From Candidatus Nanoarchaeia archaeon (lineage in GTDB: Archaea > Nanobdellota > Nanobdellia > UBA10117), in assembly GCA_035283085.1 (NCBI GenBank), contig DATEUM010000059.1, positions 1 through 24,087 on the forward strand: a stretch of 24,087 nt of DNA. The letters are read 5' to 3'. Positions 5,747 to 19,257 of the stretch are shown here, one piece after another. The stretch's first letter is position 1, and each line of letters opens with the position of its first letter. A program made the position numbers and the translations under genes. Below the pieces are notes generated by a model. The model made no database searches, was not told the origin of the DNA, and was given only the letters and a program-made list of their open reading frames with translations.

Positions 5747-6160
5747 TTAGTCTTGGCAAAATTCTTGATTTCCTTCGCCGTGTGCAAGGGCCAATAGAAC
5801 ATGCTTGTGGGGCGGAGCATTCTCCTTTATCTTTTCTGCAGTGACGCCCAATCCCAGGTAACCATCGCTCTTTACCACCTGGTCAATTATCTTGTTGATG
5901 TATTCATTCTTGAACTGGTTCAATGGGATATAGCTGTCTTCACTATCTTCAGGATGCAGCTCTATGCCGCTTTCGTCGAGCAGTTCCTTTCCCTTCCAGA
6001 CCTTTTCAGAAAATATTGGGCAGACATAGCCAAGTGGTATATCTTCAACCCGCACAGCCACTCTCAGAAGGCTGTCGAATTTTAACGCTACAGTTTTGGT
6101 TTTTGCAGGATTCAATAAGCAATGCTCCAAAGCCCCGCGGCTGAAATCCTCTATTGGCAT
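5747..6160 (-). CDS. Hypothetical protein (up to 137 aa, start uncertain)
   Basis: Fills the gap in a co-directional run of small genes and couples to the next start; no recognised motif. Confidence 0.55.
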   Translation of the reverse strand: MPIEDFSRGALEHCLLNPAKTKTVALKFDSLLRVAVRVEDIPLGYVCPIFSEKVWKGKELLDESGIELHPEDSEDSYIPLNQFKNEYINKIIDQVVKSDGYLGLGVTAEKIKENAPPHKHVLLALAHGEGNQEFCQD

Positions 6161-6199
6161 AAATAGAAAAAGAATGATAGCCTTAAAAATTAATCGCCA

Positions 6200-6544
6200 T
6201 TACCTGCCTAGGGCTGCTGCCACATCTGATGTCACGCATACTGATGTGCAGGCGCTTGGGCATACCCTATTGTCTCCGTTAATTGCCCTCTCAAGCTCGC
6301 AGGGATTTGTGCATTCAGCAGAGCTTCCTGCAGGGCATCCTGATGAAGAGCTAGCAAAGAATTTTGAGCCGCAGCTTATTCCAGAGTCAATATCCACACA
6401 GCCTATTGGCGCAGTTGCAAATCCTGTAAAAACATTGCTCCCGAGGCCAAATGTGTCGCCAAAGAAAAATATAATATTGATGCCGACGGCAAGAACGATA
6501 AGGAAGCCTATGAGCGTGATTGTGCGGTCATCATCCAGTGCCAT
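6200..6544 (-). CDS. Membrane-anchored small Cys-rich surface protein
   Basis: N-terminal hydrophobic helix (ITLIGFLIVLAVGINIIFFF), TGFA motif, then 8 Cys in about 60 aa including GCVDIDSG; TTTAAA about 24 nt upstream of ATG. Confidence 0.75.
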   Translation of the reverse strand: MALDDDRTITLIGFLIVLAVGINIIFFFGDTFGLGSNVFTGFATAPIGCVDIDSGISCGSKFFASSSSGCPAGSSAECTNPCELERAINGDNRVCPSACTSVCVTSDVAAALGR

Positions 6545-6567
6545 GGCACTGGATAAGGTTATTGCAA

Positions 6568-6578
6568 TTTAAAGCTTT
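6568..6578 (-). promoter_or_regulatory. BRE/TATA box for a probably leaderless 6544 gene
   Basis: Minus strand reads AAAGCTTTAAA-like, about 24 nt upstream of the ATG. Confidence 0.5.
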
Positions 6579-6592
6579 TGCACTAACTAAGA

Positions 6593-6683
6593 GGTAAGTC
6601 TCAGGCTTAGGGCTTCGCAGCACCTCACGTTCAAGCGTGGCTTGTGCGGTTGAGAAAAAGCAGCCCCTGTGTTGAGAGATACC
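6593..6683. repeat. Dispersed palindromic element, copy A (inner module inverted)
   Basis: Plus strand GGTA-AG-TCTCA ... GGGCTTCGCAG ... GCAGCCC ... TGAGA-GA-TACC. Folds into a long rod (GGGCT/AGCCC, GCAC/GTGC, CACG/CGTG). Ends shared with the copies at 10893, 13591 and 17090. Confidence 0.7.
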
Positions 6684-6701
6684 CCTTCCGTCAAGAACTG
6701 A

Positions 6702-7430
6702 CTAGTTCAGTTGAAGGAATTCTTCCACGCTATTGACTAATTTTCCGTTTCGACTTAAAACTGACGCCTTGAGTTCTTCAGGGGCACTGGAAAATGTACA
6801 TGGGACTAGACGCTCTGCTCTGTGCAGCTCAAATCCCGCATCTGCAGCAGAATCCCCTAAGGTATAAATTTTATCATAAGGCTTGCTTGCGACCTCCATC
6901 AACCCGAGGTATTTGCCGCGCATCCCAGCATGGAGGCCGAGCTTTTCGAAGCCAGCTATAATGTCATCTTTAATCTTGAATCTAGTGCAATAGACATCCA
7001 TTATCGCTTCGCGTATGTTCGCTGCACGAAAAACGGCGTCAAGCAATTGTGCAGGCTCTGCGGATACGACATAGATGTCATCGGTGCAGTTTGAAAGCGC
7101 TTCTCTAACAGAAGGTCTTATGTATTTTCCATAACCCCCGGAACACTCTTTAACAAAACTTATTGGAATTTTTGCCGGCCTGATGTACACGATATCACAA
7201 ACCTGCAAGGACGTGGTCTCTCCAGTCATGGTGGGATCGTCAAAAACGCTGAACAAGCCCCTCGCAAATTTCCTGCAGCTTTTAACTACAAGGCCTCTGA
7301 ACGCTAAATCAAGCTTTTTGAGGCCTGCCTGTTGTTTGTAATAATCCAAGAGGAGATTTTCGAGCAGTGTCCTGCCATTAATCTTAGGAACTATTGTGCC
7401 ATCACAATCCAATACCCTGGCAATCTTCAT
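6702..7430 (-). CDS. HAD-superfamily hydrolase (phosphoserine phosphatase-like)
   Basis: Motif I LDCDGT right after MKIARV, motif II VVSA, motif III K (GMRGKY), motif IV LGDSAAD. Confidence 0.8.
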   Translation of the reverse strand: MKIARVLDCDGTIVPKINGRTLLENLLLDYYKQQAGLKKLDLAFRGLVVKSCRKFARGLFSVFDDPTMTGETTSLQVCDIVYIRPAKIPISFVKECSGGYGKYIRPSVREALSNCTDDIYVVSAEPAQLLDAVFRAANIREAIMDVYCTRFKIKDDIIAGFEKLGLHAGMRGKYLGLMEVASKPYDKIYTLGDSAADAGFELHRAERLVPCTFSSAPEELKASVLSRNGKLVNSVEEFLQLN

Positions 7431-7480
7431 GCATGGAATTGAAACCAAAGTCTTAAAATGCCTTTCAATAGTTTCGTGTT

Positions 7481-8674
7481 ATGTTAATCGGCCTCGTTGG
7501 GAAGCCATCATCCGGGAAGAGCACGTTCTTCAAAGCTGCGACTCTCGCAGATGTAGAGATATCTGAAAGGCCTTTTACCACAATAGAGGCGAACCAAGGG
7601 GTAGGCTTTGTCAGGGTAAATTGCCCCGAAGTTGAGCTCAAAACTAAATGCAACCCAAGAACAGGCTTTTGCATCGACGGCCAGCGTTTTGTGTCTGTAA
7701 AAATGATAGATGTTGCTGGCCTGGTCCCTGGAGCACATCTGGGCAAAGGCCTTGGCAATAAATTCCTATCCGATCTTATACAGGCAGATGCGCTAATCCA
7801 TATCGTAGATGCGAGCGGAGGGACTGATGAGGAAGGAAAAAAAGTCCCAGCAGGAAGCTACGACCCTGTTAATGATGTCAAGTTCCTCGAAGAAGAGATA
7901 AATAAATGGTTCTTCAGCCTCTTGAAAGAGAACTGGACTAAATTTATCAAGCAGTCGCAAAAGAAAGAGGTTGACAAGGCGCTTGCAGAGCAGTTCTATG
8001 GCTTCAAAATTACTTTAGACCAGATTAAGCATGCGCTAAAACGGACAAAATTAGAAGACAAAAATCTCATGGAGTGGACAGATGCAGATATCCTAAGTTT
8101 TGCCACAATTCTGCGCCAATCTTCAAAACCAATTGTAATTGCGGCAAATAAAATCGATGTGCCAGCTGCTAAGGGGAATCTTGACAGGTTGAGCAAGGAG
8201 TTCCCACAGCAAATGATCATTCCCTGTTCAGCCGAATCCGAACTTGCGCTAAGGGAAGCGGCAAAGAAGGAAATCATAAAATACATACCAGGGGATAATA
8301 AATTCACGCTGGCTAAAGAGGAAGCTCTTAATGAAAACCAGAGGAAAGCCCTTGACTTCATACAAGCCAAAATCTTAACCCAGTGGAAATCAACAGGGGT
8401 GCAGCAGTGCTTGAACTCTGCAGTATTTGACTTCTTGAAATATATTGCAGTCTTTCCCGGCGGCGTCCATAAATTAGGAGATTCTCAGGGAAGGATACTC
8501 CCAGATGTATTTTTGCTTCCCCCTGACAGCACACCCTTGGATTTTGCTGCAAAGATACACACTGATTTTGCAAAGAATTTCATAGCTGCCATAAATGTAA
8601 GGACGAGGCAAAAAATCGGCAGGGACACAAAGCTGAATAACCTTGATGTAATAGAGCTGGTGGCTGGAAAGTGA
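7481..8674 (+). CDS. ychF: Archaeal YchF/Obg-family translation-associated NTPase with C-terminal TGS domain
   Basis: GKPSSGKST (G1), PFTTIEAN (G2), DVAGLVPGAHLGKGLGNKFL (G3), NKID (G4), TGS-like LPDVFLLP...IHTD. Confidence 0.93.
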   Translation: MLIGLVGKPSSGKSTFFKAATLADVEISERPFTTIEANQGVGFVRVNCPEVELKTKCNPRTGFCIDGQRFVSVKMIDVAGLVPGAHLGKGLGNKFLSDLIQADALIHIVDASGGTDEEGKKVPAGSYDPVNDVKFLEEEINKWFFSLLKENWTKFIKQSQKKEVDKALAEQFYGFKITLDQIKHALKRTKLEDKNLMEWTDADILSFATILRQSSKPIVIAANKIDVPAAKGNLDRLSKEFPQQMIIPCSAESELALREAAKKEIIKYIPGDNKFTLAKEEALNENQRKALDFIQAKILTQWKSTGVQQCLNSAVFDFLKYIAVFPGGVHKLGDSQGRILPDVFLLPPDSTPLDFAAKIHTDFAKNFIAAINVRTRQKIGRDTKLNNLDVIELVAGK

Positions 8675-9097
8675 TCAGCAGCCAAAGAAATATGCTTGCA
8701 TCTTTCTCCAGGAATATGCCTCTGATTTGTGTTCCCTGGCTTCGCTCCGCTTTACTTCACTGATATAAACCCGCCCGTGCTTGTTTTTACCTTGTAATTT
8801 GGCATCGCCTTTTTCAGTAACCAGTATCTTTACAAGATTCTTGCCGTCAGGGAGTCGTATATTGCCCACAGGCTCGTGAATTGCTAGGCCAGGCGCGTAA
8901 CCGCCCCCAATTATTTTATCTTTGTGCAATACGACTGTGTAGAGGTATCCGCCTCTTGATTTTCCTGCATAAGCTACAGAAATGTCAGCTTCGTCAAATC
9001 CTTTTACGCGTTTTTCCAAATCTGCAGAAGTATCAACCTTTATGACTATGCCACTTTGGCTTTTGCTTCCAATCTTTATGTTGTAGTATCTTTCCAC
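8675..9097 (-). CDS. Hypothetical protein (140 aa, GTG start)
   Basis: Stop abuts the ychF stop (TGATCA); TTTTTATATA box upstream on the minus strand. Confidence 0.6.
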   Translation of the reverse strand: MERYYNIKIGSKSQSGIVIKVDTSADLEKRVKGFDEADISVAYAGKSRGGYLYTVVLHKDKIIGGGYAPGLAIHEPVGNIRLPDGKNLVKILVTEKGDAKLQGKNKHGRVYISEVKRSEAREHKSEAYSWRKMQAYFFGC

Positions 9098-9181
9098 AGA
9101 TCATCATTGCTAAGGATATATAAAAATAATTGTATGCACCAGTTAACTAATCTATTTAAAGTGCAATTTGCTTTTATCAGC

Positions 9182-9472
9182 ATGAAGACTTACGAGGCTA
9201 AGTACAGCTTCAAGGCTATGATATATGACGGCGCATGGATGGGGCCTGTTGATGAAAGTGATACTTACAAATTCGAAGCCAAGGACGACAATGATGCAAG
9301 GGTAAAGGCTGAAGAATACAAACCTCAGCTGCTGAAAAAATTCTTTTCACCAGAAAACATAACCTTGGAGAGCCGGACTGAAGCAAGAGCAGTTCCTTCT
9401 GGAGAGAGAATGATGCAGATGAGCAGGCCTCCAGAAGTGACATCAACAGGCTTTCACTCAAATCCTGGGTAA
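9182..9472 (+). CDS. Hypothetical protein (about 96 aa)
   Basis: Start moved to MKTYEAKY; TATTTAAA about 22 nt upstream suggests a leaderless transcript divergent from the 9097 gene. Confidence 0.6.
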   Translation: MKTYEAKYSFKAMIYDGAWMGPVDESDTYKFEAKDDNDARVKAEEYKPQLLKKFFSPENITLESRTEARAVPSGERMMQMSRPPEVTSTGFHSNPG

Positions 9473-9504
9473 ACTTAATAACTTACTTTGCTATTTTATT
9501 TCTT

Positions 9505-10458
9505 ATGAGCGACCTTGAAACCAAGATAAATTCTGGCAAATCCAGCTATAGGGATTCCATAATAGATGCGGCAAAGCAGAAATGTGATGGCTGCGGCTCA
9601 AAAGAGCTAATAAAAGATAACCACAGCGAACTTGTCTGCAACAAATGCGGCCTTGTACAGGAAAATTTGGTACTTGACGCTGCGCCACCTGCTGGAAGCG
9701 GCTCTGAAGATGGAGAAAAGAAAGTGCACTGGGGCCCTTCTTCAAGCATAAATCGGCATGACAAGAACCTGCCGACTTACATAATGGGCAACAAGGATGC
9801 GCATGGCAAATCAATATCATTGAAGAATAAACAGCTAATGTATAGGATGAAAAAATGGCAGGCAAGGATAAGGGTGAGCAACAATCTTGAAAGGAGCTTG
9901 TCGCAAGGCCTATCATTGTTTGACGCGAGAGCGGGCCAGATGGGCCTTCCCGGCGACATAAGGAAACATGTTGCATATCTTTACAAAAAGGTTTTAGAGG
10001 CTAGCATGCTTCGCGGCCGCTCATCAGAAAGCATGCTCGCAGCCACGACATATGCGGCCTGCAGGGAAATGGCCCTGCCAAGAACGCTCGATGAAATAGC
10101 TTCATATTTTACAGTTAAAAAGCGGGATGTGGGAAGGGATTACAGGTTTATGAAAAGGGAATTGCACCTTTCCATAGGATTGCAGTCTCCACACTTGTAT
10201 CTTCCGAAAATGTGCGCTGAACTGGGGCTTGGCATTGAAACTCAGCAAAAAGCAAAGGAAATTTTGGAAGAGGCCAAGTCAAGCCGCGGCCCGCTGTCAC
10301 AGGTTTCCGGCGCGGTATACATGGCGAGCATCATCAAAAATGAAAGGCGCACGCAAAGAGAAGTGGCCGATGCGGCCGGGGTAACGGAAGTCACTGTAAG
10401 GAATGCATACAAAGAAATGGCAGAAAAACTCAACTTGCAGCACATTCAATGCCTTTAA
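9505..10458 (+). CDS. tfb: Transcription initiation factor IIB (TFB), divergent in the B-reader
   Basis: Zn ribbon CDGC...CNKCGLV, HDKNL, cyclin repeat 1 LRGRSSE...PRTLDEIA, C-terminal HTH RRTQREVADAAGVTEVTVRN.YKE. Confidence 0.92.
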   Translation: MSDLETKINSGKSSYRDSIIDAAKQKCDGCGSKELIKDNHSELVCNKCGLVQENLVLDAAPPAGSGSEDGEKKVHWGPSSSINRHDKNLPTYIMGNKDAHGKSISLKNKQLMYRMKKWQARIRVSNNLERSLSQGLSLFDARAGQMGLPGDIRKHVAYLYKKVLEASMLRGRSSESMLAATTYAACREMALPRTLDEIASYFTVKKRDVGRDYRFMKRELHLSIGLQSPHLYLPKMCAELGLGIETQQKAKEILEEAKSSRGPLSQVSGAVYMASIIKNERRTQREVADAAGVTEVTVRNAYKEMAEKLNLQHIQCL

Positions 10459-10506
10459 CCGCCCTGTGCAACCAATTTCGGGCAGAACATTCCAAGCGGG
10501 GACAAG

Positions 10507-10518
10507 AAGCTTTTTAAA
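10507..10518 (+). promoter_or_regulatory. BRE/TATA box for rps17e
   Basis: AAGCTTTTTAAA about 23 nt upstream of ATG 10541; no SD, so probably leaderless. Confidence 0.55.
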
Positions 10519-10540
10519 TGTCGTTATCGACCCTCAAAAT

Positions 10541-10732
10541 ATGGGAAGAATAAGAACAAATATTGTCAAGAGACAGGCAGAGAACCTGTATCAAGGCAAC
10601 AAGGACAAATTTAGCAAGAAGTTTGACGAAAACAAAAAGGCCCTTGAACCAATTGCAGAATTCCCTACCAAAAAATTAAGAAACTTGATTGCAGGCTACA
10701 TCACGAAAAAGTTAAAGGCAAGTGCAAGCTAA
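10541..10732 (+). CDS. rps17e: 30S ribosomal protein S17e
   Basis: MGRIRT.IVKR...F..KFDENKK...TKKLRN.IAGYIT signature; true start is MGRIR, inside the longer ORF call. Confidence 0.95.
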   Translation: MGRIRTNIVKRQAENLYQGNKDKFSKKFDENKKALEPIAEFPTKKLRNLIAGYITKKLKASAS

Positions 10733-10766
10733 CTTTTTCGGGACCCGCAAAATCGTAAGATTTTGC
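10733..10766 (+). terminator. Candidate terminator/hairpin after rps17e
   Basis: T-run (CTTTTTC) right after the stop, then a perfect 8-bp stem GCAAAATC-GTAA-GATTTTGC (10747-10766). Confidence 0.4.
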
Positions 10767-10892
10767 TCGGTTACCAAAAACTGAAAACTCAGGCAGCTTA
10801 ACCACATACAGGCAGAAAAGCGATGACAATGAATACAGCGAAGACGAATTGCAATACGAAACCCTTTTTAGAAATCCCTACGGCTTTACTAA

Positions 10893-10952
10893 GATTAAGT
10901 CTTAAGTCTGGAGCTGCTCAAGCACTGCGAAGCCTTGAGATGAGAGATAACC
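10893..10952. repeat. Dispersed palindromic element, copy D
   Basis: GATTA-AG-TCTTAAGTCTGGAGCTGC-tcaagca-CTGCGAAGCC-ttgaga-TGAGA-GA-TAACC; about 51 of 63 columns identical to the reverse complement of 13588-13650 by hand alignment. Confidence 0.8.
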
Positions 10953-10986
10953 TTAATCACCAGTTAGCGATAAGAGGAGGCACATA

Positions 10987-11271
10987 GTGGAAGAGCATAG
11001 CATCTTTATCGGAGGCAAGCCGTTCATGAATTACGTAACAGCTGTTGTGATGCAGTTTACTACAAAGGGAGCAGCTAGCGTCGTCGTGAAATCTAGGGGC
11101 AAATTTATCAGCAGGGCTGTGGATGTTGTAGAAGTGGTCAGAAAGAGGTTCCTGAATGACCAAATCGAGGTCAAGGATGTCAAAATAGGCTCTGAGGATT
11201 TCACAAACAGGGAAGGCAAGCCTGTTAGTGTCAGCACTTTGGAGATTACGCTGGGAAAGAAGCAGAAGTAA
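10987..11271 (+). CDS. albA: DNA/RNA-binding protein Alba
   Basis: IFIGGKPFMNYVTAV, VKSRGKFISRAVDVVE, VSTLEITL; GTG start after strong SD GAGGAGG. Confidence 0.95.
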   Translation: MEEHSIFIGGKPFMNYVTAVVMQFTTKGAASVVVKSRGKFISRAVDVVEVVRKRFLNDQIEVKDVKIGSEDFTNREGKPVSVSTLEITLGKKQK

Positions 11272-11338
11272 TCTATATGCCTGAGTTTCTAGTTTCCTCT
11301 ATACAAATCATTTTATAACCGATCAGCAAAAGATTTGC

Positions 11339-12796
11339 ATGCTTGAGGGTTATCTTGTACAAGAACAACCTAAAGTCGAACTTGTTGCAGTACTAAAAGG
11401 TATAGGTTCTTTTGAAGGTCTTGGCCCTGATCACATCGCGGCATATGCCGCAAGAGGCGATTTCGCATTTGAAAGTTCTGCACAGCTTGTGCAAGCCGAC
11501 CGCGAAAAAAACGCGCTGGGTAAAAAGACGCGCGGTGTTCTGGCAAATTCCTTTGGCAAAGGCCATGGTTCTGTTGGCGACATGACGGCATTTGTCTTTT
11601 CCATTGAAAATCTTACGAGGGCCGCAACCCTTCAGCTATGTTTCCCAGAATATTTGGAGCATGAGCAGCAATCCCTCAGAAGGGTGCAGGCTAAAAGAGG
11701 CATTTACTTGCCGCCTGCCCTGGAGAAATCCGCATTGGCGAATGAAGTCAAAACAACTCTGGAGGATTCGGTGCAGCTTTACAAAGAGATGGCAGGCATA
11801 GGCCTGCCTGACGACAAAAAGGAAAGCTCTGTGCCCGAAGAAGATGCGCGATTCGTATTGCCACTTTTGACCAGAACTAACATCACTACAAAGGGCAACG
11901 CCCGCGAGCTGATACACCTTTACACAATGAACCAGCAAGGCGAAGTGCCGTCTTACGTCGCGGATATAGTTTTAGCGATGCATGGGAAGGCAAAAGACGC
12001 GGCACCGCACACATTTGCCAGAGGGTCGTTGAACTATGAAACCCTGGGATTTTTCCCCTCGATGACTCTGTACGCATCCGAAAACCGCACATTAAATGAA
12101 ATAATCAAGACTAACAGCAATGATGATGTAGCTTTTGTGAAGCATAAGGTAGATGAAGAAACTATGCAGAGGGCAGTTGAGCAGAAAAGAGAGGAGGAGC
12201 TTGCAAACCTAAAACATGTTCGCGACGGCGAACACATGTCTGGGTTTTTGTTCCCGATATCACTCGCTGGTTTCCATCAAACCATTCGGCAAAGGACGTG
12301 GCATCATACTTGCGAGTCTATTTATGATGCTGCAGTCAGAGGCACCATAAAGTTACCTCCAAGCATAGAAAAATCAGAATGGAATATGCGATATTTGTCA
12401 CAATGCAGCGAAATGCTGAACTTGTACAAAGATCTTACTGATGCGGGAGTACCGAGAGCAGAAGCTGTTGGCGTCATACCGCATGCGACTATGCTCTATG
12501 ATTTTATTCAAGTTGACGGTTGGAATGCGGTGCACGCTATCGGCAAAAGAACTTGTTTGGAAGCGCAATGGGAAATCAGAAGCATATGCAATCAGATAGC
12601 GGCGCATCTCAGGGAAAAGAAATCGCCGCTTGGCGAATATGCGCAGCCACAATGTTTGACATATGGCCTTTGCCCAGAAGAAAAGAAAAGCTGGGCTGAA
12701 AATCCTGAAAATTCCACATGCAGCATATACAAGCGGTTGATGAAGCAGGGAAAACTTGATCAGGAAAAATGGCGTGCTACTGAAGAGACAAAGTGA
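11339..12796 (+). CDS. thyX: FAD-dependent thymidylate synthase, tandem two-domain form
   Basis: Two ThyX-like domains: GHGSVGD, QQSLRR, EDARFVLP, GNAREL (domain 1); QTIRQR...ES, EAVGVIP, KRTCLEAQWEIR (domain 2). Directly upstream of tmk; TTTTATAA about 21 nt upstream. Confidence 0.85.
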   Translation: MLEGYLVQEQPKVELVAVLKGIGSFEGLGPDHIAAYAARGDFAFESSAQLVQADREKNALGKKTRGVLANSFGKGHGSVGDMTAFVFSIENLTRAATLQLCFPEYLEHEQQSLRRVQAKRGIYLPPALEKSALANEVKTTLEDSVQLYKEMAGIGLPDDKKESSVPEEDARFVLPLLTRTNITTKGNARELIHLYTMNQQGEVPSYVADIVLAMHGKAKDAAPHTFARGSLNYETLGFFPSMTLYASENRTLNEIIKTNSNDDVAFVKHKVDEETMQRAVEQKREEELANLKHVRDGEHMSGFLFPISLAGFHQTIRQRTWHHTCESIYDAAVRGTIKLPPSIEKSEWNMRYLSQCSEMLNLYKDLTDAGVPRAEAVGVIPHATMLYDFIQVDGWNAVHAIGKRTCLEAQWEIRSICNQIAAHLREKKSPLGEYAQPQCLTYGLCPEEKKSWAENPENSTCSIYKRLMKQGKLDQEKWRATEETK

Positions 12797-12797
12797 A

Positions 12798-13580
12798 ATG
12801 GCAAAAGGTTTTTTTGTTATGATAGATGGCCCTGACGGCGTGGGCAAAGGCACTCTTACCAATGCTGTCATCAAGCATCTTGTAGAACAGGGAAAAGAAG
12901 TTCTTGAGCTGCAAAGGTGGTGGCTGAAGCACGGCTGGCACCCACCAATAGGCGAATTAAAATCAAGAAAAATCAATGTCCTTATTTCTGCAGAGCCAAC
13001 TTTTGTCGGCGTTGGCAAAGAGATTCGGAATGAAATTATCAGCACAGAGGCTAGAAAAGCAGGAAGAAAATATTCCGCACGGCAAACTGCGGAGGCTTAT
13101 GCTCTCGATCGCACAGTATTGTACCAAAATGTGATAATTCCTGCGCTGAAAGCAGGCATTACAGTCATACAAGAACGAGGTTTTCCGTCAAGTTTGGCAT
13201 ACCAGACGCTTCAGGCTAAAGAATCTGGAGAAAGTCTTACAATGGAACATATCGCACAAATGGAAGGCAACCAGCTTGCAATGCAATTTCCTCCAGACTT
13301 GCTGGTAATACCCACAGTAAATGCTGAGGAAGCCATAAAAAGACTGGAGAAAAGGTTTGAGAAAAAGGATGACGCCATTTTTGAAAAGAAAAATTTCCAG
13401 GAAAAGCTAAGGGCTTTATACAATACAGTGGAATTCATAGCAGTTTTTGAGAAGTTGGGGACGAAAGTGGTTTTTGTGGATGCCAGCAAGCCAATATCAG
13501 AGACTGAAGCCCAAATCATTGACATACTGAACCAGTACATCAAGAGCAGCAAGCCCACACTAAGCAAGTGGTTCAAATAA
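12798..13580 (+). CDS. tmk: Thymidylate kinase
   Basis: P-loop IDGPDGVGKGT, EPT, AYALDR, IQER...SSLAYQ, PDL. Start at MAKGF, 1 nt after the thyX stop. Confidence 0.9.
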   Translation: MAKGFFVMIDGPDGVGKGTLTNAVIKHLVEQGKEVLELQRWWLKHGWHPPIGELKSRKINVLISAEPTFVGVGKEIRNEIISTEARKAGRKYSARQTAEAYALDRTVLYQNVIIPALKAGITVIQERGFPSSLAYQTLQAKESGESLTMEHIAQMEGNQLAMQFPPDLLVIPTVNAEEAIKRLEKRFEKKDDAIFEKKNFQEKLRALYNTVEFIAVFEKLGTKVVFVDASKPISETEAQIIDILNQYIKSSKPTLSKWFK

Positions 13581-13590
13581 TATGTGGTTA

Positions 13591-13653
13591 GGGTTATCTC
13601 TCAACATCAGGCTTTGCAGTTCCCTGAGCAGCCTCAGACTGAAGACTTAACCC
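13591..13653. repeat. Dispersed palindromic element, copy B (overlaps the XPD 3' end)
   Basis: Minus strand GGGTTA-AG-TCTTCAGTCTGAGGCTGC-tcagggaa-CTGCAAAGCC-tgatgt-TGAGA-GA-TAACCC; 6-bp terminal inverted repeat GGGTTA/TAACCC. Confidence 0.8.
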
Positions 13654-15585
13654 TTCAGCATCAGTCGTGAAAAACTTCTTCACTTTCTCTGTTGTCAAGC
13701 GTGTGACAACAGGCCTCCACTCTGGAGGAATGCACTTGAGGTAATTTTTCCAGGTAAACCTTTCATCAACAAAAATCACGCAGCCACGGTCTTCCATAGA
13801 CCTGACACAGCGGCCTGCGGCCTGCAAAGATTTTGTCATAGCAGGATATATGTAACCATAATCCCAGCCTTTTCCAAACTTGAAATCGTAATAATCAATT
13901 AGTGATTGCGTTTCCAAATCAGGAGTTGCCAGAGGAACACCTACAACAATTACGCACTCAAGATTTTTTCCAGGAAGATCAACGCCTTCAGACATCGAGC
14001 CGCCCTGCACTCCAAACAATACTGCGCCCTTTTCAGAATTTAATTTGAAATTATACAGGATTGCAGCCCTCTGCGCTTTCGTCAGGTCTGGCTTGTCAAC
14101 AAAAATCTGCTTTGATATTTTGCCTTCCATGTACGACATTATTGACTGCATAAACAGATATGATGGGAAAAATACTGCAACATTGTGCGGGACTTCACTT
14201 ATTGTATTGAGGCAGATTTTTGCAATCTTATCAAATTCTTCAGGATCCCTTTTGGTGAATTTCGTAGTAACAGAAGGTTCTATCAGGACAAGCCTGTTTT
14301 TGGCCTCGAAAGGACTTGGGTAAGTCTTGATGTCTGTCTTTTCCAATTTGAAGCCCAGCAAATCCCTGTACAATTCTCCAGGCACTAATGTGCCTGACAT
14401 CAATACTGCAGACCTGCATTCATTAAAAACCTCTGCAGAAGACACTGAAGGGTTAAGGCAGTTGTAACTTATCTCAACAAAGGACAATTTGTTCCTGCCA
14501 TATTTCTTTTTCAGCACGCGGGCAAACCCATTATCCTCGCCGAGCCACGCTTTTAGGAAATCAGCAACGCTGCCCATTGATGATTTCTTTTCCCTTTTCC
14601 TGATTTCCTCAGCCGCATTTTCCAGGTCATCTATCAAATTAGAATAATTAAAGCCGGTGGACATTACAACTTCCTCAACAAACCTGTCTTTTTTCAGCAG
14701 GCTCTCATTCTTGCTTTCCAAAAACTCTTTTCTCAAGTTATCAAGGCAGTTGTTCAGATTGTTCATTGCAGTAGCCAAATCATCGAAATGCAATGCCTTA
14801 GCCTCCTTTGCTGCCCTGCTGACAGTGAATTGCGACAGCTTTTCTGATAGGATTTCCCTTATCCTGCCTGGAAGATTATGCGCCTCGTCCACTATTATTA
14901 TGGAATTTTTCAGCTGCTTGTTCAGCCTGCTAAGAAATGCCTTCCTTACAGAAGGGTGAAATATGTGGTAGTAGTCTGCTATAACAACAGTGGACTCTTT
15001 TCCCAATAAAGAGGCGAGCTCATAGCTGCAGAACTCATCCTTATACCTCTGCGTCAAATCTTCGGCGTGCAATATCTCTCCCTGCTGAATTTCCATCATG
15101 GCAAAGGCAGCCTTTCCCTGCAATCTATCCGAACCCGCGCCCCATACCGCATTGTAGAATGGGCATCTCTCCTCCGCAACCAGCTCGCGGCAAAAGGAAT
15201 GGAACTCCTTGCTTCCCAGCACATCGACAGAAGGGTGCGAGCACATCCATTTCTTTCCTATCAAGTCAGTCACATTGAATTTCAGGTTGTGCCTTTTCTT
15301 TATTTTCTGCAAAGTCTCGATTGCAATCGCGTGCTGCGTGTGCTTTGGCGTCAGGAAAAATACAGTAAGGCCTTCCTTCAGGGCAGCATCAAGTGCGGGG
15401 CTTAGTGTGGCTGCTGTCTTTCCCAGTCCAGTAGGGGCGTGCGCGATAAGGCACTTGCTGTTTTTAATGGAATTTTCCACATCAGAAATCAGCTGCTCCT
15501 GTATAGGCCGCAGTTCGTTGAAAGGAAAGTACATATTCTGCAGACCAAACAAATCTATAAAAGACTTTATTTCCTCCAGAAGCAA
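13594..15585 (-). CDS. xpd: XPD/Rad3-family 5'-3' Fe-S DNA helicase
   Basis: Q motif RPIQ, motif I APTGLGKT, four Fe-S Cys (WMC, SFC, RCPFY, FCSY), DEAH, SGT, SEGVD, QAAGRCVR; TTG start. Confidence 0.9.
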   Translation of the reverse strand: MLLEEIKSFIDLFGLQNMYFPFNELRPIQEQLISDVENSIKNSKCLIAHAPTGLGKTAATLSPALDAALKEGLTVFFLTPKHTQHAIAIETLQKIKKRHNLKFNVTDLIGKKWMCSHPSVDVLGSKEFHSFCRELVAEERCPFYNAVWGAGSDRLQGKAAFAMMEIQQGEILHAEDLTQRYKDEFCSYELASLLGKESTVVIADYYHIFHPSVRKAFLSRLNKQLKNSIIIVDEAHNLPGRIREILSEKLSQFTVSRAAKEAKALHFDDLATAMNNLNNCLDNLRKEFLESKNESLLKKDRFVEEVVMSTGFNYSNLIDDLENAAEEIRKREKKSSMGSVADFLKAWLGEDNGFARVLKKKYGRNKLSFVEISYNCLNPSVSSAEVFNECRSAVLMSGTLVPGELYRDLLGFKLEKTDIKTYPSPFEAKNRLVLIEPSVTTKFTKRDPEEFDKIAKICLNTISEVPHNVAVFFPSYLFMQSIMSYMEGKISKQIFVDKPDLTKAQRAAILYNFKLNSEKGAVLFGVQGGSMSEGVDLPGKNLECVIVVGVPLATPDLETQSLIDYYDFKFGKGWDYGYIYPAMTKSLQAAGRCVRSMEDRGCVIFVDERFTWKNYLKCIPPEWRPVVTRLTTEKVKKFFTTDAEGLSLQSEAAQGTAKPDVER

Positions 15586-15642
15586 ATGGCGCTCTATACT
15601 GGCTGTTTATGACAAATATATAAGATAATTCAATACTGTCAT

Positions 15643-15666
15643 ATATATTACAAAAGAGTAATATAT
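15643..15666. promoter_or_regulatory. Inverted repeat, candidate ArsR operator next to the TATA box
   Basis: ATATATTAC-AAAAGA-GTAATATAT (9-6-9), abutting TTTAAA (15666-15671) about 24 nt upstream of the arsR ATG. Confidence 0.55.
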
Positions 15667-15694
15667 TTAAACCACAATTTCCTACTGTCAGGGT

Positions 15695-16015
15695 ATGAAT
15701 AATCACAAGCAATTCTTTGCCGCGCTCTCAAATGAGGGAAGGTTGGAGATTGTTAATGCCCTAAGCAATGGCCCTTTGAATGTAAGCCAAATTGTTATTT
15801 CTACTGGATTCAAGCAATCTCGGGTGTCAAGAAGTTTGGATTGCCTGAGCTGCTGCGGCTTTGTTTCTGCCGTAAAGAATGGAAGAGAAAGGATTTACAA
15901 GCTGAACGATTCAGTGATGCACGTCCTGAAAGCCATAGAAAAGCATGAGATGTCCACAAAAAACCAGTGCAAATGCGGAGTTGAAAAGAAAAATGGCCAT
16001 AGATGTGATATGTAA
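15695..16015 (+). CDS. ArsR/SmtB family transcriptional regulator
   Basis: FAALSNEGRLEIV..L, LNVSQI, QSRVSRSL..L..CGFV...KNGRERIYKL; extra Cys/His residues in the HTH and C-tail. Confidence 0.88.
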   Translation: MNNHKQFFAALSNEGRLEIVNALSNGPLNVSQIVISTGFKQSRVSRSLDCLSCCGFVSAVKNGRERIYKLNDSVMHVLKAIEKHEMSTKNQCKCGVEKKNGHRCDM

Positions 16016-16136
16016 GATGACGGTTGACGAAACGAAGACTGCGCACAAGGCAGAATACAACGGAAAAATGTATTACTTTTGCAGCGCGGGCTGCCATCAG
16101 AGATTTAAAGCTAATCCCGCACTATTTGTGAGATGA
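15993..16136 (+). CDS. Stand-alone YHS/TRASH metal-binding domain protein (47 aa)
   Basis: MAIDVICKMTVD...EYNGKMYYFCSAGC..RF.ANP. Confidence 0.85.
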   Translation: MAIDVICKMTVDETKTAHKAEYNGKMYYFCSAGCHQRFKANPALFVR

Positions 16137-16140
16137 ACGA

Positions 16141-17076
16141 ATGGAAAACAAGACAATCGAGATGAGCCCCAATCTAATATATGCGCTCATAATTATTGGA
16201 GTTGCGATAGCCGCAGTATTGGGCTTTATTCTGAAGGTTTCTCCATATCTCATAACTTTGGCGCTGTTGATGGGCATCGTGGGCTTTACAGCGACATTTG
16301 TTGCATGTCGCAAGCATTGCCTATCACAGATGCACTGCGCAATGTGTGGAATGGTTTTCGGCATGATTCCGGCGTTTATTGTTGGAACTATTCATGCCCT
16401 GCAAACAGGGGACTTTGTCTGGCCCATAATCACGGGAACAATTGCAGGCGCTGCTCTAGGAATACCTTTTGGCAACATAGGCGGCGATATGGGCCGGTTA
16501 GAAGCGGTAATGGCTGCGCCAATGGCAGGAATAATGGGCTCTATGACAGGAGTCATGGTAAGAATATATAATGTGGATTTGTTCATGATTGCTTTTGCAG
16601 CGATAATACTGTTTGTCCTGGGCGAGACCGCGTATATGGTGCACAAAACTTCTGGCAGGAAGCTGGATATGAAAAGCATAGGCATTGGCTGCATTCTTGG
16701 GCTAATATTTCTTGTACCAGTATCCCTAATTTCATTCCCAACAAATGTTGCTGCTACAGACTTGCAAGGTTTCTTGCAGGAAAGTGCCCCATCCGCTGCT
16801 GCTGAAAAGCAAGAAATTGGCATAAGAATTACCCGTTACGGATATGAGCCAGCTAATATAGATGTGAAAAAGGGTGCGGCGGTAAAGCTCAACTTGCAAG
16901 CAGATCCTGACGCAGGATGCGCAAGGGCTTTTACAATTCCTAGTTTGGGCATACAAAAAGTAGTGCAGCCAGGCGGCACAGAGACTGTTGAGTTTACAGC
17001 ACCAAACGATGAAAACATTAATATTCCGTTCCAGTGCTCAATGGGCATGGCCCGAGGTATGATCGATGTTGTCTAA
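16141..17076 (+). CDS. Multi-pass Met/Gly/Cys-rich membrane protein fused to a C-terminal cupredoxin-like domain
   Basis: Several hydrophobic segments with HCLSQMHCAMCGM and MAGIMGSMTGVM; C-terminal GYEPANIDVKKG..V, GCA, FQCSMGM..G. Confidence 0.8.
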   Translation: MENKTIEMSPNLIYALIIIGVAIAAVLGFILKVSPYLITLALLMGIVGFTATFVACRKHCLSQMHCAMCGMVFGMIPAFIVGTIHALQTGDFVWPIITGTIAGAALGIPFGNIGGDMGRLEAVMAAPMAGIMGSMTGVMVRIYNVDLFMIAFAAIILFVLGETAYMVHKTSGRKLDMKSIGIGCILGLIFLVPVSLISFPTNVAATDLQGFLQESAPSAAAEKQEIGIRITRYGYEPANIDVKKGAAVKLNLQADPDAGCARAFTIPSLGIQKVVQPGGTETVEFTAPNDENINIPFQCSMGMARGMIDVV

Positions 17077-17089
17077 CTGCCGTACTATG

Positions 17090-17195
17090 AAATCTCTCAA
17101 CACCGAAGCTTCGCAGAAGCGAGGCACAGCTGAACCGCAGTTCAGGTTGTGTAAGGGCTGCGCAAGATATGCAGCCATAGACCTTAGACTTACCC
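17090..17195. repeat. Dispersed palindromic element, copy C (long internal loop)
   Basis: Minus strand GGGTA-AG-TCTAAGGTCTATGGCTGC-[about 50 nt with hairpin CTGAAC/GTTCAG]-CTGCGAAGC-ttcggtgt-TGAGA-GA-T; collinear with copies B and D. Confidence 0.7.
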
Positions 17196-17214
17196 TTTGT
17201 AGTGGGGTGAAAGC

Positions 17215-19257
17215 ATAGCAACTGATCCGATCTGCGGCATGTATGTGGACGATAAATCTGCGACCATTACTAAGACTATCAAAGAAACCAAATATTACTT
17301 CTGCAGCTCCAATTGTCTTGTAGCTTTTGAAGCTCCTGAAAAGGAGATGAAGAGGCTGAAATATGAGGCCATTTTTGGCGGAATCTTCGCAGCAATTGCA
17401 ATGACGCTGTTTTTCCTTCAAGACTTTCAATACCATGATATAGCAGCTCTCTTGGTCACGTTGCCTGTGCAGTTTGTAATTGGCAGAAGGTTTTACAGTG
17501 GCGCTTGGGATGGCCTCAAGTCAAAGAGCGCAAATATGGACACTTTGATTGCGCTCGGCACGTCTGCCGCATGGTTCTATTCTGCATATGTAACGCTGAC
17601 TGGAGGAGATGGCGTTTATTTTGAAGTTGCGGCCATAATCATTGCCGCTACAGTAATTGGAAAATATCTCGAAGAAATTATGAAGCACAAGGCAACTGCA
17701 GCCTTGCACAAATTGATGGACCTGCGGCCTAAAATTGCAAAAGTTTTGGTGAAAGGCAAGGAAATTGAAAAGCCTATTTCTGAGGTTAAAGTTGGCGATA
17801 TATGCGTAGTAAGGCCTGGCCAGTCAATACCTACAGACGGTGTTGTGTTTGATGGCCACTCTGAAGTCAACGAGTCAATGGTAACCGGCGAATCTATGCC
17901 AGTCTCAAAATACAAGGGCGATTCTGTAATCGGAGGCACGATAAATGAAGGTGGCTTGTTGAAAATTAAAACTACTAAAGTCGGCGAGGACACTGTTCTG
18001 CAGCAGATAATTGCACTCGTGGGACAAGCACAGCTGCAAAAAATACCAATTCAGCATCTTGTCGATAAGGTTGCTGCAAGATTTGTTCCTGCCGTAATAT
18101 TAATTGCGCTCGGCGCGTTTGCGTTTTGGTCTCTCACAGGCCAAGAATTTATCTTCGCACTTACAATCGCAATTTCAGTCCTGATTATAGCATGCCCCTG
18201 TGCCTTAGGGCTTGCAACTCCGACAGCGCTTGTGATAGGAATAGGAAAAGCCGCTGAACAAGGCATTTTGGTCAGAGCAGGTTCTGCACTTGAACTGGCA
18301 AAGAATGTTGATACGATTGTTTTTGATAAGACAGGCACGCTGACAAAAGGAAAGCCTGATGTCATTGACATTGTTGCATTGAAAGGTAAGAAAGATGACG
18401 TTTTGAGAATAGCAGCAATTGCAGAATACGGCTCTGAACATCCACTTGGAAGGGCAATTGTGAAAAAAGCTGATGATTCGAAACTTAAAGTTCCAGAAGG
18501 CAGCAAATACAAGACCCTCGCAGGAAAAGGCATTATTGCAGCCTACAAGGATTCGGCAATTTTTGTAGGCAACAGGGATTTGATGAGTGAATACAAGATA
18601 AATCTAAGAAAGGTCGAGCCTGTGTTAAAATCATACGAGGCGCAGGCTAAAACAGCAATCCTTGTCGCTTTTGATAGGCAAATAATAGGCATTATTACGC
18701 TGGCTGATACTCTAAAAGAAACTTCTCCTAATGCTGTGGAGAGATTGAAAAAACTAGGCAAGGAACTCATATTATTAACTGGTGACAATGAAAAGACTGC
18801 CAAGGAAATAGCAAGGCAGGTAGGCATAACAAAAATACTTGCAAATGTAAAACCTGGAGACAAAGCAGCAAAAATCAAGGAACTACAAGCGCAGGGAAAG
18901 AAAGTTGCAATGGTCGGCGATGGTGTCAATGACGCACCTGCTCTGGCGCAAGCAGATTTGGGCATAGCAATAGGCTCTGGAACTGATGTTGCAAAAGAAA
19001 CTGGCCAGATAGTTCTAATTAAGGACGATTTGCGTGATGTGGCAAAAGCCATCGAAATAAGCACTAAAACCATCAACAAGATTAAACAGAATTTAGTCTG
19101 GGCATTCGGCTACAATGTGGCAGCAATCCCAATAGCTGCAGGCCTATTGTATCCTAGCTTCGGCCTGCTTTTGAGTCCCATTATAGCGTCTATAGCTATG
19201 GCAACTTCTTCGGTATCTGTTGTAAGCAATAGTTTGCTGATGAAATTGATGAAATAA
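17215..19257 (+). CDS. copA: Cu(+)-exporting P1B-type ATPase with N-terminal YHS domain; probable ATA start
   Basis: CPC (TM6), DKTGT, SEHP, TGDN, GDGVND, YN and MATSS (P1B-1 signature). The YHS start ATDPICGM lies upstream of the annotated ATG 17239, beginning at in-frame ATA 17215 after SD GGGGTGA. Confidence 0.92.
   Translation: MATDPICGMYVDDKSATITKTIKETKYYFCSSNCLVAFEAPEKEMKRLKYEAIFGGIFAAIAMTLFFLQDFQYHDIAALLVTLPVQFVIGRRFYSGAWDGLKSKSANMDTLIALGTSAAWFYSAYVTLTGGDGVYFEVAAIIIAATVIGKYLEEIMKHKATAALHKLMDLRPKIAKVLVKGKEIEKPISEVKVGDICVVRPGQSIPTDGVVFDGHSEVNESMVTGESMPVSKYKGDSVIGGTINEGGLLKIKTTKVGEDTVLQQIIALVGQAQLQKIPIQHLVDKVAARFVPAVILIALGAFAFWSLTGQEFIFALTIAISVLIIACPCALGLATPTALVIGIGKAAEQGILVRAGSALELAKNVDTIVFDKTGTLTKGKPDVIDIVALKGKKDDVLRIAAIAEYGSEHPLGRAIVKKADDSKLKVPEGSKYKTLAGKGIIAAYKDSAIFVGNRDLMSEYKINLRKVEPVLKSYEAQAKTAILVAFDRQIIGIITLADTLKETSPNAVERLKKLGKELILLTGDNEKTAKEIARQVGITKILANVKPGDKAAKIKELQAQGKKVAMVGDGVNDAPALAQADLGIAIGSGTDVAKETGQIVLIKDDLRDVAKAIEISTKTINKIKQNLVWAFGYNVAAIPIAAGLLYPSFGLLLSPIIASIAMATSSVSVVSNSLLMKLMK

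Follow-up and report, generated by a model that had tools for sequence, protein, structure and literature searches.

The window analyzed here, by which we mean the whole stretch of 24,087 nucleotides (GenBank assembly GCA_035283085.1, contig DATEUM010000059.1, forward strand), comes from a Candidatus Nanoarchaeia archaeon and carries four related stretches of sequence set at gene ends and junctions. These are confirmed as true copies of a non-coding, roughly palindromic repeat of ~70 bases, referred to below as the main element, and two smaller hairpins listed with them belong to a second class of repeat. An earlier reading of the window made from its letters alone (the sequence-only reading) had placed the four copies; all are recovered by a covariance model built from 37 genome-wide copies, and matches to protein families bear out the gene contexts named at that time (a weak HAD; S17e/Alba; thymidylate kinase/XPD; cupredoxin/P-type ATPase). 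The features are:

6585–6691, plus strand: copy A, long form of ~100 nt (model E = 4.8e-9); left arm TAAGTCTCAG at 6595–6604 and right arm TGAGAGATA at 6673–6681; inner module inverted relative to the arms (GCTTCGC at 6612–6618 ... GCAGCC at 6660–6665); between convergent genes, an open reading frame (ORF) at 6096–6572 on the plus strand and a weak-HAD ORF at 6702–7448 on the minus strand
10747–10766: perfect 8-bp hairpin, GCAAAATC-GTAA-GATTTTGC, just 3′ of the S17e stop codon
10886–10959, plus strand: copy B, short form (model E = 6.3e-14); left arm at 10896–10905, right arm at 10941–10949, GCGAAGC at 10927–10933; in the 254-nt spacer between S17e (10403–10732) and Alba (10987–11271), in the same sense as both
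13585–13659, minus strand: copy C, short form (model E = 1.5e-14); left arm at 13640–13649, right arm at 13595–13603; placed where thymidylate kinase (stop at 13580) and XPD (ORF 13594–15585) converge
17081–17202, minus strand: copy D, long form of ~115 nt with extra hairpins in the core (model E = 6.1e-7); left arm at 17183–17192, right arm at 17091–17099; antisense, between a cupredoxin-domain gene (stop at 17076) and a copA-like P-type ATPase gene with a YHS domain (17239–19257)
17125–17151, minus strand: small hairpin nested in the core of copy D, CACAAC-CTGAAC-TGCG-GTTCAG-CTGTG, present in both the minimum-energy and the centroid folds

The genome that contains the window is metagenome-assembled (a MAG) and comprises 568 kb in 96 contigs at 82% completeness, from metagenomes of soil, sediment, and groundwater. 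Its genes include those for TFB, Alba, S17e, XPD, exosome subunits, and a split subunit A of RNA polymerase, and its XPD is nearest to that of a "Woesearchaeota" MAG (68%), with Altiarchaeota MAGs at 40–45%. From this gene content, the affinities of XPD, the 82% completeness at 0.57 Mb, and the genome sizes of its relatives (0.3–1.2 Mb), the host is a DPANN-type (Woesearchaeota-like) archaeon with a genome of ~0.7 Mb. A genome search with two motifs, TAAGTCTYWA on the left and TGAGAGATW on the right, returned ~40 further copies of the main element. With an nhmmer profile built from 30 short copies, we counted 90 clusters at E < 0.05; a score of 20 bits or more is reached by 62 of them, which together span 4,058 bases, and the covariance model gives 78 matches at E < 0.01, all four window copies among them. 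Set against 0 matches in 36 of 40 related genomes, these 78 matches show that the scan for further copies, which the sequence-only reading had proposed, reveals a family reaching far beyond the window and beyond chance.

The consensus of the main element is ACTGGGKTAAGTCTCAAG ... TGWTGAGAGATWCCCCAGT, in which a variable core is enclosed by terminal inverted repeats that are imperfect and ~20 bp long. Extended outward, the left end reads ACT(G/A)GGGKTAAGTCTCAAG and the right end TGWTGAGAGATWCCCC(A/T)GT; of 33 flanks on each side, 24 carry ACT at the left and 21 carry AGT at the right. Conservation is at least 90% at the ends and lower in the core. The element totals 55–120 nt, its core 25–70 nt, and the arm half-sites are separated by a variable 25–100 bp; the short form measures ~55 nt from arm motif to arm motif and ~75 nt with the conserved flanks, and the long forms (copies A and D) have added material within the core. 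Within the window, the similar pair is B and C (82% over 68 nt), and not B and D as claimed earlier.

Two details of structure that the sequence-only reading had taken to be fixed prove to vary. The inner GGCTGC/GCRAAGC module is poorly conserved, being direct in 25 copies, inverted relative to the arms in 10 of 62 (copy A included), and unrecognisable in 26, and the idea of a d(GCGAAGC) mini-hairpin loses its basis, since most copies lack this module or have it flipped. The AG/GA mismatch described as invariant rests on a left-arm triplet that, in a pattern search, is AAG in only 34 of the 43 copies whose left arm can be recognised; the others have ATC, ATG, AAA, and so on, ATC being a perfect complement to the right arm, and ~8 copies, judged by eye, carry the perfectly complementary arm TATCTCTCA. 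Written antiparallel, the mismatch is A.A plus G.G and not tandem sheared G.A; as it is also not conserved in the sister family described below, a K-turn (kink-turn) or tandem sheared G.A was rejected. Overall, the conserved parts resemble imperfect terminal inverted repeats (~20 bp) more than a hairpin.

Both orientations relative to transcription occur, as had been noted for the window. Genome-wide, 20 copies are same-sense and 13 antisense between co-directional genes, with 12 more at convergent and 6 at divergent junctions, and there is no bias. Tandem junctions are occupied in 9% of cases, convergent in 13%, and divergent in 5%, and the lowest frequency, between divergent genes, is as expected for tolerated insertions. 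One subfamily, on contigs of the host genome (G000), shares a conserved left extension ATG...AAAAC...ACGAA (C47 9826–9883, C56 2456–2519, C10 900–963, C93 426–489 and 1167–1223, and C47 6548–6627); in it, a short frame started by the ATG enters the element just 5′ of the Shine-Dalgarno sequence and start codon of the real gene, and the extension may stem from duplication of a gene start or be an upstream ORF that arose by chance. Five main copies lie ~10–60 nt from tRNA genes (Val, Arg, Phe, Pro, and Glu; C8 335–410, C17 87–146, C84 7164–7231, C75 5178–5244, and C50 4369–4424). Introns are predicted in 16 of the 24 tRNAs detected, the longest (70 nt, in tRNA-Gly on C28) containing two unrelated hairpins; a link to tRNA introns was rejected, since no intron among the 24 tRNAs is built from the main element.

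Comparison of gene junctions with those of relatives shows the copies as insertions at places that are empty there; they have entered very short spacers as well as terminal codons of housekeeping genes, among them tightly coupled ribosomal-protein cistrons. In three related genera, L22 and S3 overlap by 4 nt and the gap between S3 and L29 is 0–1 nt; in the host, the S3/L29 gap is 100 nt and holds one copy. The host L22 frame also reads through a copy, with 191 codons versus 161–176 in the three relatives (15–30 longer), and its stop falls 1 nt before the S3 start (L252 3482–4057, corresponding to contig C93). Similarly, the last ~20 codons of the host XPD and its TAA stop (13594–13596, inside GAGAGATAA) lie in copy C, and in the relative whose XPD is 68% identical the stop is 6 nt from the neighboring gene with no element there. 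By these predicted frames, the C-terminal tails of L22 and XPD are encoded by copies of the element.

Variation between strains could be followed in two pairs of contigs in the assembly that resemble variants of one locus. At the rrp4/rrp41 spacer, the two co-assembled variants have flanks that are ~95% identical and share the element ends, with unrelated cores and a 10-nt difference in length. The two alleles of the rpoB/rpoA1 spacer, with 95–97% identity in the flanks, are distinguished by a cluster of 4 nt in the core and by an additional hairpin pair, which one of them carries precisely between GAGAGMT and the outer TCCCAGT. Judged from these alignments, both the core and the adjoining spacer differ between closely related strains, and turnover is thus rapid on the scale of strain divergence. 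The repeats also appear to fragment the assembly, because many contigs end near copies and variant pairs overlap at element-bearing spacers: a copy lies within a few hundred bases of a contig end at C10 212, C17 87, C19 97, C26 186, C58 168, C88 4060–4123 of 4151, and C84 14865 of 15089, and the pairs C84/C88 and C51/C58 overlap as strain variants at such spacers. A metagenome contig, L206, connects C93 and C57.

The main element appears, from the genomes compared, to be confined to one genus-level lineage, with a diverged sister family in a neighboring genus. Two genomes of that sister genus give ~14 weak hits each at E < 5, versus 0–1 in control genomes; their version reads GTTAnnTCTTA ... 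TTAAGAGMTTCCCC, and in it the mismatch position is freely variable. When metagenomes were scanned, contigs with multiple copies came from the same organism only, at 99.9–100% identity. A link to viruses was rejected, as the 106 single pattern hits in IMG/VR are about what chance would give by a rough estimate.

It is the second class of repeat, not separated from the first in the sequence-only reading, that behaves as a true hairpin, its stems changing in a compensatory way and its bulge being polar. Perfect hairpins with a stem of at least 8 bp and a loop of 2–6 nt number 226 distinct sequences in the host genome, versus 45–64 in simulated genomes, and one architecture accounts for most of this excess. 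It consists of a variable, complementary lower stem of 3–6 bp (CAC/GTG, TAC/GTA, CCC/GGG, CCA/TGG, GCCC/GGGC), one purine (A or G) left unpaired on the 5′ arm, an upper stem of 7–10 bp with the pattern A-N-C-N-R-A-A-N (AGCTGAAC, ATCTGAAC, AGCGGAAC, AGCGAAAC, AGAAAATC, ACAAAATC, and others), and a loop of 2–6 nt that is free to vary. Many complementary stem variants occur, yet their selection as hairpins makes this evidence circular; the polarity of the bulge (75 versus 8), which the symmetric search could not impose, is the sole hairpin evidence independent of selection.

The small hairpins can form arrays of 4–6. Examples of the class are found at C26 4341–4549, C49 13120–13225, C5 1495–1593, and C84 4583–4656, and in the window at 17125–17151 and 10747–10766, where the stems are respectively identical to those of the 34 CTGAAC...GTTCAG hairpins of the host genome and of the A-rich (GAAAAT) type. 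Adjacent oriented hairpins are inverted in 19 of 26 pairs (+- 19, ++ 4, -- 3, -+ 0); the pairs face outward, and therefore each DNA strand shows the same picture. There is no bias relative to gene orientation, and imperfect hairpins offered too few cases to assess G.T versus A.C asymmetry relative to transcription. Nesting in the main element recurs at three sites, namely between TTAAG and TCT, in the apical core (copy D, as listed, and contigs C14 and C71), and between the right arm and the outer 3′ flank, which shows that the main element serves as a landing place for small hairpins, usually as inverted pairs. The "TA" beside some nested hairpins is not a target duplication, because it is self-complementary and part of the covarying lower stem. 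A four-hairpin array (GCTGAAC..., GATCTGAAC..., AGAAAATTGT..., AGAAAAAGC...) stands at both C1 1070–1202 and C28 8697–8827 with 89.6% identity, and its recurrence suggests that whole arrays move or get copied as units.

The small class is also distributed more widely than the main element. The pattern CTGAAC-N2-6-GTTCAG, with its 34 occurrences in the host, is found 14 times in genome G012, 12 times in G018, and 5–7 times in several others, versus 0–1 for a reversed control, and hairpins with GAAAAT...ATTTTC arms are enriched over their reversed-pattern control in the host's family of genomes. Counts are also high in G005, G007, and G009 and zero in G002, G004, and G011. Other families of the order (G018, G031, G005, G008, and G012) share the stems and architecture of the small hairpins, which are rare across 300 additional genomes, all from the same class. 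Their abundance does not match the presence of Y1 or TnpB genes.

We read the main element as a lineage-specific, non-coding, non-autonomous mobile DNA repeat resembling MITEs (miniature inverted-repeat transposable elements) or repetitive extragenic palindromic (REP) sequences, and give this reading a probability of roughly 0.6 (0.62), because the element is lineage-restricted, inserted at otherwise empty junctions, varies between strains, and lacks constraint of the RNA or coding type. To this extent the sequence-only reading holds, as it had proposed a dispersed repeat that is non-autonomous, uncharacterised, and without a cognate enzyme in its vicinity, and the empty junctions and strain differences are the behavior of inserted DNA. 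The family is new, and a high density of MITEs in DPANN is already known: a census finds the highest MITE densities among archaea in this group and names a Woesearchaea genome and Ca. Altiarchaeum hamiconexum, the two being classed there as DPANN (PMC11602168). Like prokaryotic MITEs such as Sulfolobus SM1-4, the Correia elements of Neisseria, and the archaeal MITEs of that census, the main element is short, non-coding, and multi-copy, has imperfect terminal inverted repeats and a variable interior, is mostly intergenic and restricted to one lineage, and forms size variants through internal insertions.

Several observations weigh against such a reading. No target-site duplication was found at offsets of 0–15 on each side for k = 2–8, the best excess being 8 versus 4 cross-pairs for a dinucleotide, and Y1_Tnp, TnpB zinc ribbon, DDE_Tnp_1, and DDE_3 transposases were not found in the host genome, where all enzyme absences refer to the 82%-complete assembly. 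Both absences count against a classical MITE. The search for an autonomous parent, an insertion sequence with the same ends, returned none, although its solo-end models were short and insensitive; the long left–right end pairs listed in that search include none shown to bracket a transposase gene. Compared with known MITEs, the density is high (at least 62 copies in 0.57 Mb). Near-identical pairs of copies that would prove recent transposition are missing, the best unrelated pairs being 80–94% identical, and the AAG/GAT asymmetry is retained in most copies even though perfect-palindrome variants exist, which suggests some constraint beyond plain decay. Finally, the comparison of empty sites suggested by the sequence-only reading succeeded across genera, at L22/S3/L29 and XPD, but gave no empty-site variants at copies A–D in contigs assembled from four public runs, which represent the same strain and hide rare variants; in these runs, copies A–C are unchanged. 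One of them has a contig with 13 other letters in place of 468 nt (window 8655–9124), spanning a 140-codon ORF at 8675–9097 on the minus strand, and this change is a strain-level deletion or replacement unrelated to the repeats.

As for the enzyme, the sequence-only reading had looked to REP- or attC-like hairpins of single-stranded DNA, read through their unpaired bases by an HUH, IS200-605, or RAYT (REP-associated tyrosine transposase) enzyme or a tyrosine recombinase with copies beside its gene. This part of the proposal finds no support in view of the absence of covariation, the weak fold, the variable mismatch, and the lack of Y1/HUH or TnpB genes in the genome. The Y1 family PF01797 has 0 matches in the host genome and matches in 3 of 40 relatives (G006, G017, and G039), uncorrelated with repeat or hairpin counts; mobilisation by HUH/RAYT or IS200-605 enzymes was therefore rejected, with no enzyme found and no correlation in relatives. 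A single tyrosine recombinase gene is present and presumably encodes the chromosome-dimer resolvase XerA or another housekeeping Xer. If the element is nonetheless mobile DNA, its conserved ends would be what a DNA enzyme acting in trans recognises, one that does not duplicate its target, and this enzyme would either be missing from the incomplete assembly or belong to an unrecognised type. The core could turn over as inverted arms, and the ~70 copies among themselves, recombine or undergo template switching, and insertions at gene ends and between cistrons would be tolerated. Any effects of the hairpins on mRNA, in 3′ ends or between cistrons, would be a tolerated by-product and not the reason for the element.

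The alternative that survives best, although we consider it unlikely, is that the repeats are functional RNA in 3′ untranslated regions or between cistrons, where their role would be to protect 3′ ends, to let neighboring cistrons differ in stability, or to mark sites of processing, much as bacterial REPs act in a secondary role. The position of the copies, 2–20 nt past stop codons and 5–40 nt ahead of the next Shine-Dalgarno sequence, would suit such a role; those inside operons, such as L22-S3-L29 and S17e-Alba, are necessarily transcribed through, the nested small hairpins have compensatory stem variants, and putative pairs on a defined strand show a slight excess of G.U over A.C (~67 versus 41 cells). 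Orientation shows no preference, however (20 versus 13), and the signs of a conserved fold are missing from the main element. RNAalifold gives no consensus structure and no pairs; with the structure of the sequence-only reading imposed, 68.9% of cells are paired versus 67.4% in column shuffles; and the covariation score is equalled in 187 of 500 shuffles, so that the check for covariation proposed at that time yields nothing significant. The arms of a copy pair with each other no better than with those of other copies (p = 0.25–0.62), and the DNA folds of copies A–C are weak, with z-scores of 0.1 to -2.5 against shuffles. Copy B, at z = 0.1, does not beat its shuffles at all and thus has no stable global hairpin.

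The genomic comparisons also tell against an RNA function, since related genera lack the element at the same junctions and their genes work with spacers of 0–4 nt, only ~10% of junctions are occupied, and the core is wholly different between strains at one site. Rfam has no match at gathering score in the whole window and none at E ≤ 1 in 6000–17600, which rejects a known RNA family. A general transcription terminator was rejected as well, given that copies occupy only ~5–13% of junctions, and hammerhead, C/D-box, and bulge-helix-bulge motifs (TGATGA and the like) were dropped by eye, their order and spacing being wrong and the motifs unconserved across copies.

Decidedly unlikely, in our judgement, is that a host protein with a role in the chromosome, such as nucleoid organisation, topology, or replication, binds the ends or the hairpin pairs as double-stranded or extruded DNA, and that copies are kept for their usefulness. 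Bacterial interspersed mosaic elements (BIMEs) do bind IHF and gyrase, and here the ends are strongly conserved around a free core, the CTGAAC and GAAAAT stems persist across several families of the order without a recognisable transposase, and the symmetric pairs (19 +- versus 0 -+) present the same picture on each strand. Against this stand the restriction of the main element to one genus-level lineage, copy numbers of 0–34 within one family of genomes, which are hard to square with an essential role, the variable spacing of the half-sites (25–100 bp), and the lack of any candidate binding protein identified. The RNA and the binding-site readings alike apply above all to the small hairpins in their pairs, the most unusual feature of which is persistence across the order together with strand symmetry. 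Far less probable than either is a coding role for the element, as a short module (a translated peptide cassette or small ORF) with the reading G-L/V-S-L-K ... L-R-D: 23 of 38 copies have one frame open, where about a third would be expected, 54, 51, and 48 nt are common lengths, ATG precedes some copies, and L22 and XPD read through theirs, but lengths of 55, 53, and 56 nt are frequent too, most copies have stops within 2–7 codons and no start codon, the frames of the left and right arms differ in many copies, and variability in the main element has no three-base periodicity, a lack that largely refutes a coding cassette.

The mobile reading of the main element can also be set beside other palindromic systems. 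A REP hairpin measures 20–40 nt with a GTAG or CGTC tag at one foot, and the RAYT gene is single-copy and usually REP-flanked. Like bacterial REP, BIME, and REPIN (paired REP) sequences with their Y1 HUH-type RAYT (PMC2817692, PMC3116915, PMC3733652), the host repeats are high-copy extragenic palindromes at gene ends in both orientations and form mosaics of differing hairpin types, and the small class, though not the main element, resembles REPINs in its inverted pairing and its persistence over long evolutionary distances. Unlike REPs, they have no GTAG/CGTC tag, the main element is longer and folds poorly, the host is archaeal and has no RAYT/Y1 gene, and Y1 genes in relatives are unrelated to hairpin abundance. 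Integron attC sites and the ends of IS200/IS605 share with the main element an imperfect palindrome, unpaired bases that could give strand polarity, and the lack of a target duplication, but no integron integrase, cassette arrays, or TnpA was found in the host, no covariation supports a folded main element, and its copies are dispersed among housekeeping genes without the arrays of attC.

Rickettsia palindromic elements are likewise palindromes in a reduced genome that can be read into proteins, as in the XPD and L22 tails here, although here only C-terminal tails are involved, most copies are intergenic, and the sequences are unrelated. The hairpin repeats of organelles, the sponge mitochondrial repetitive hairpin elements (RHEs; PMC2800124) and the Volvox palindromic repeats (PMC2670323), also combine small genomes with nested hairpin families and, reportedly, with no known transposase; as described there, they are GC-rich or AT-rich simple palindromes without conserved asymmetric ends, and hosts and sequences are unrelated. 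We would put forward only tentatively, as a rather doubtful proposal, that the small outward-facing pairs together with the main element could be an archaeal counterpart of REPINs, kept over order-level divergence by a structure-specific enzyme other than Y1/HUH, or serving a host function that acts on either strand, such as a bidirectional RNA or DNA signal.

A perfect 22-nt palindrome, ATCCAGTGCCATGGCACTGGAT, at 6533–6554 lies within the 3′ end of the ORF at 6096–6572, 40 nt before copy A, and belongs to neither repeat class.

Genomes as small as that of the host (~0.7 Mb) are considered to be under strong pressure for DNA loss. Two interlocking repeat classes nevertheless make up 1% or more of this one, and they stand even between translationally coupled ribosomal-protein genes. 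As a practical effect, such repeats appear to fragment assemblies and mislead gene callers into extended or spurious ORFs. For the biology of these organisms, the finding means that, in DPANN archaea, palindromic repeats of a selfish or semi-domesticated kind thrive with no recognisable transposase, which raises the question of what moves them, and what most deserves attention is that the small hairpin pairs are conserved across the order.

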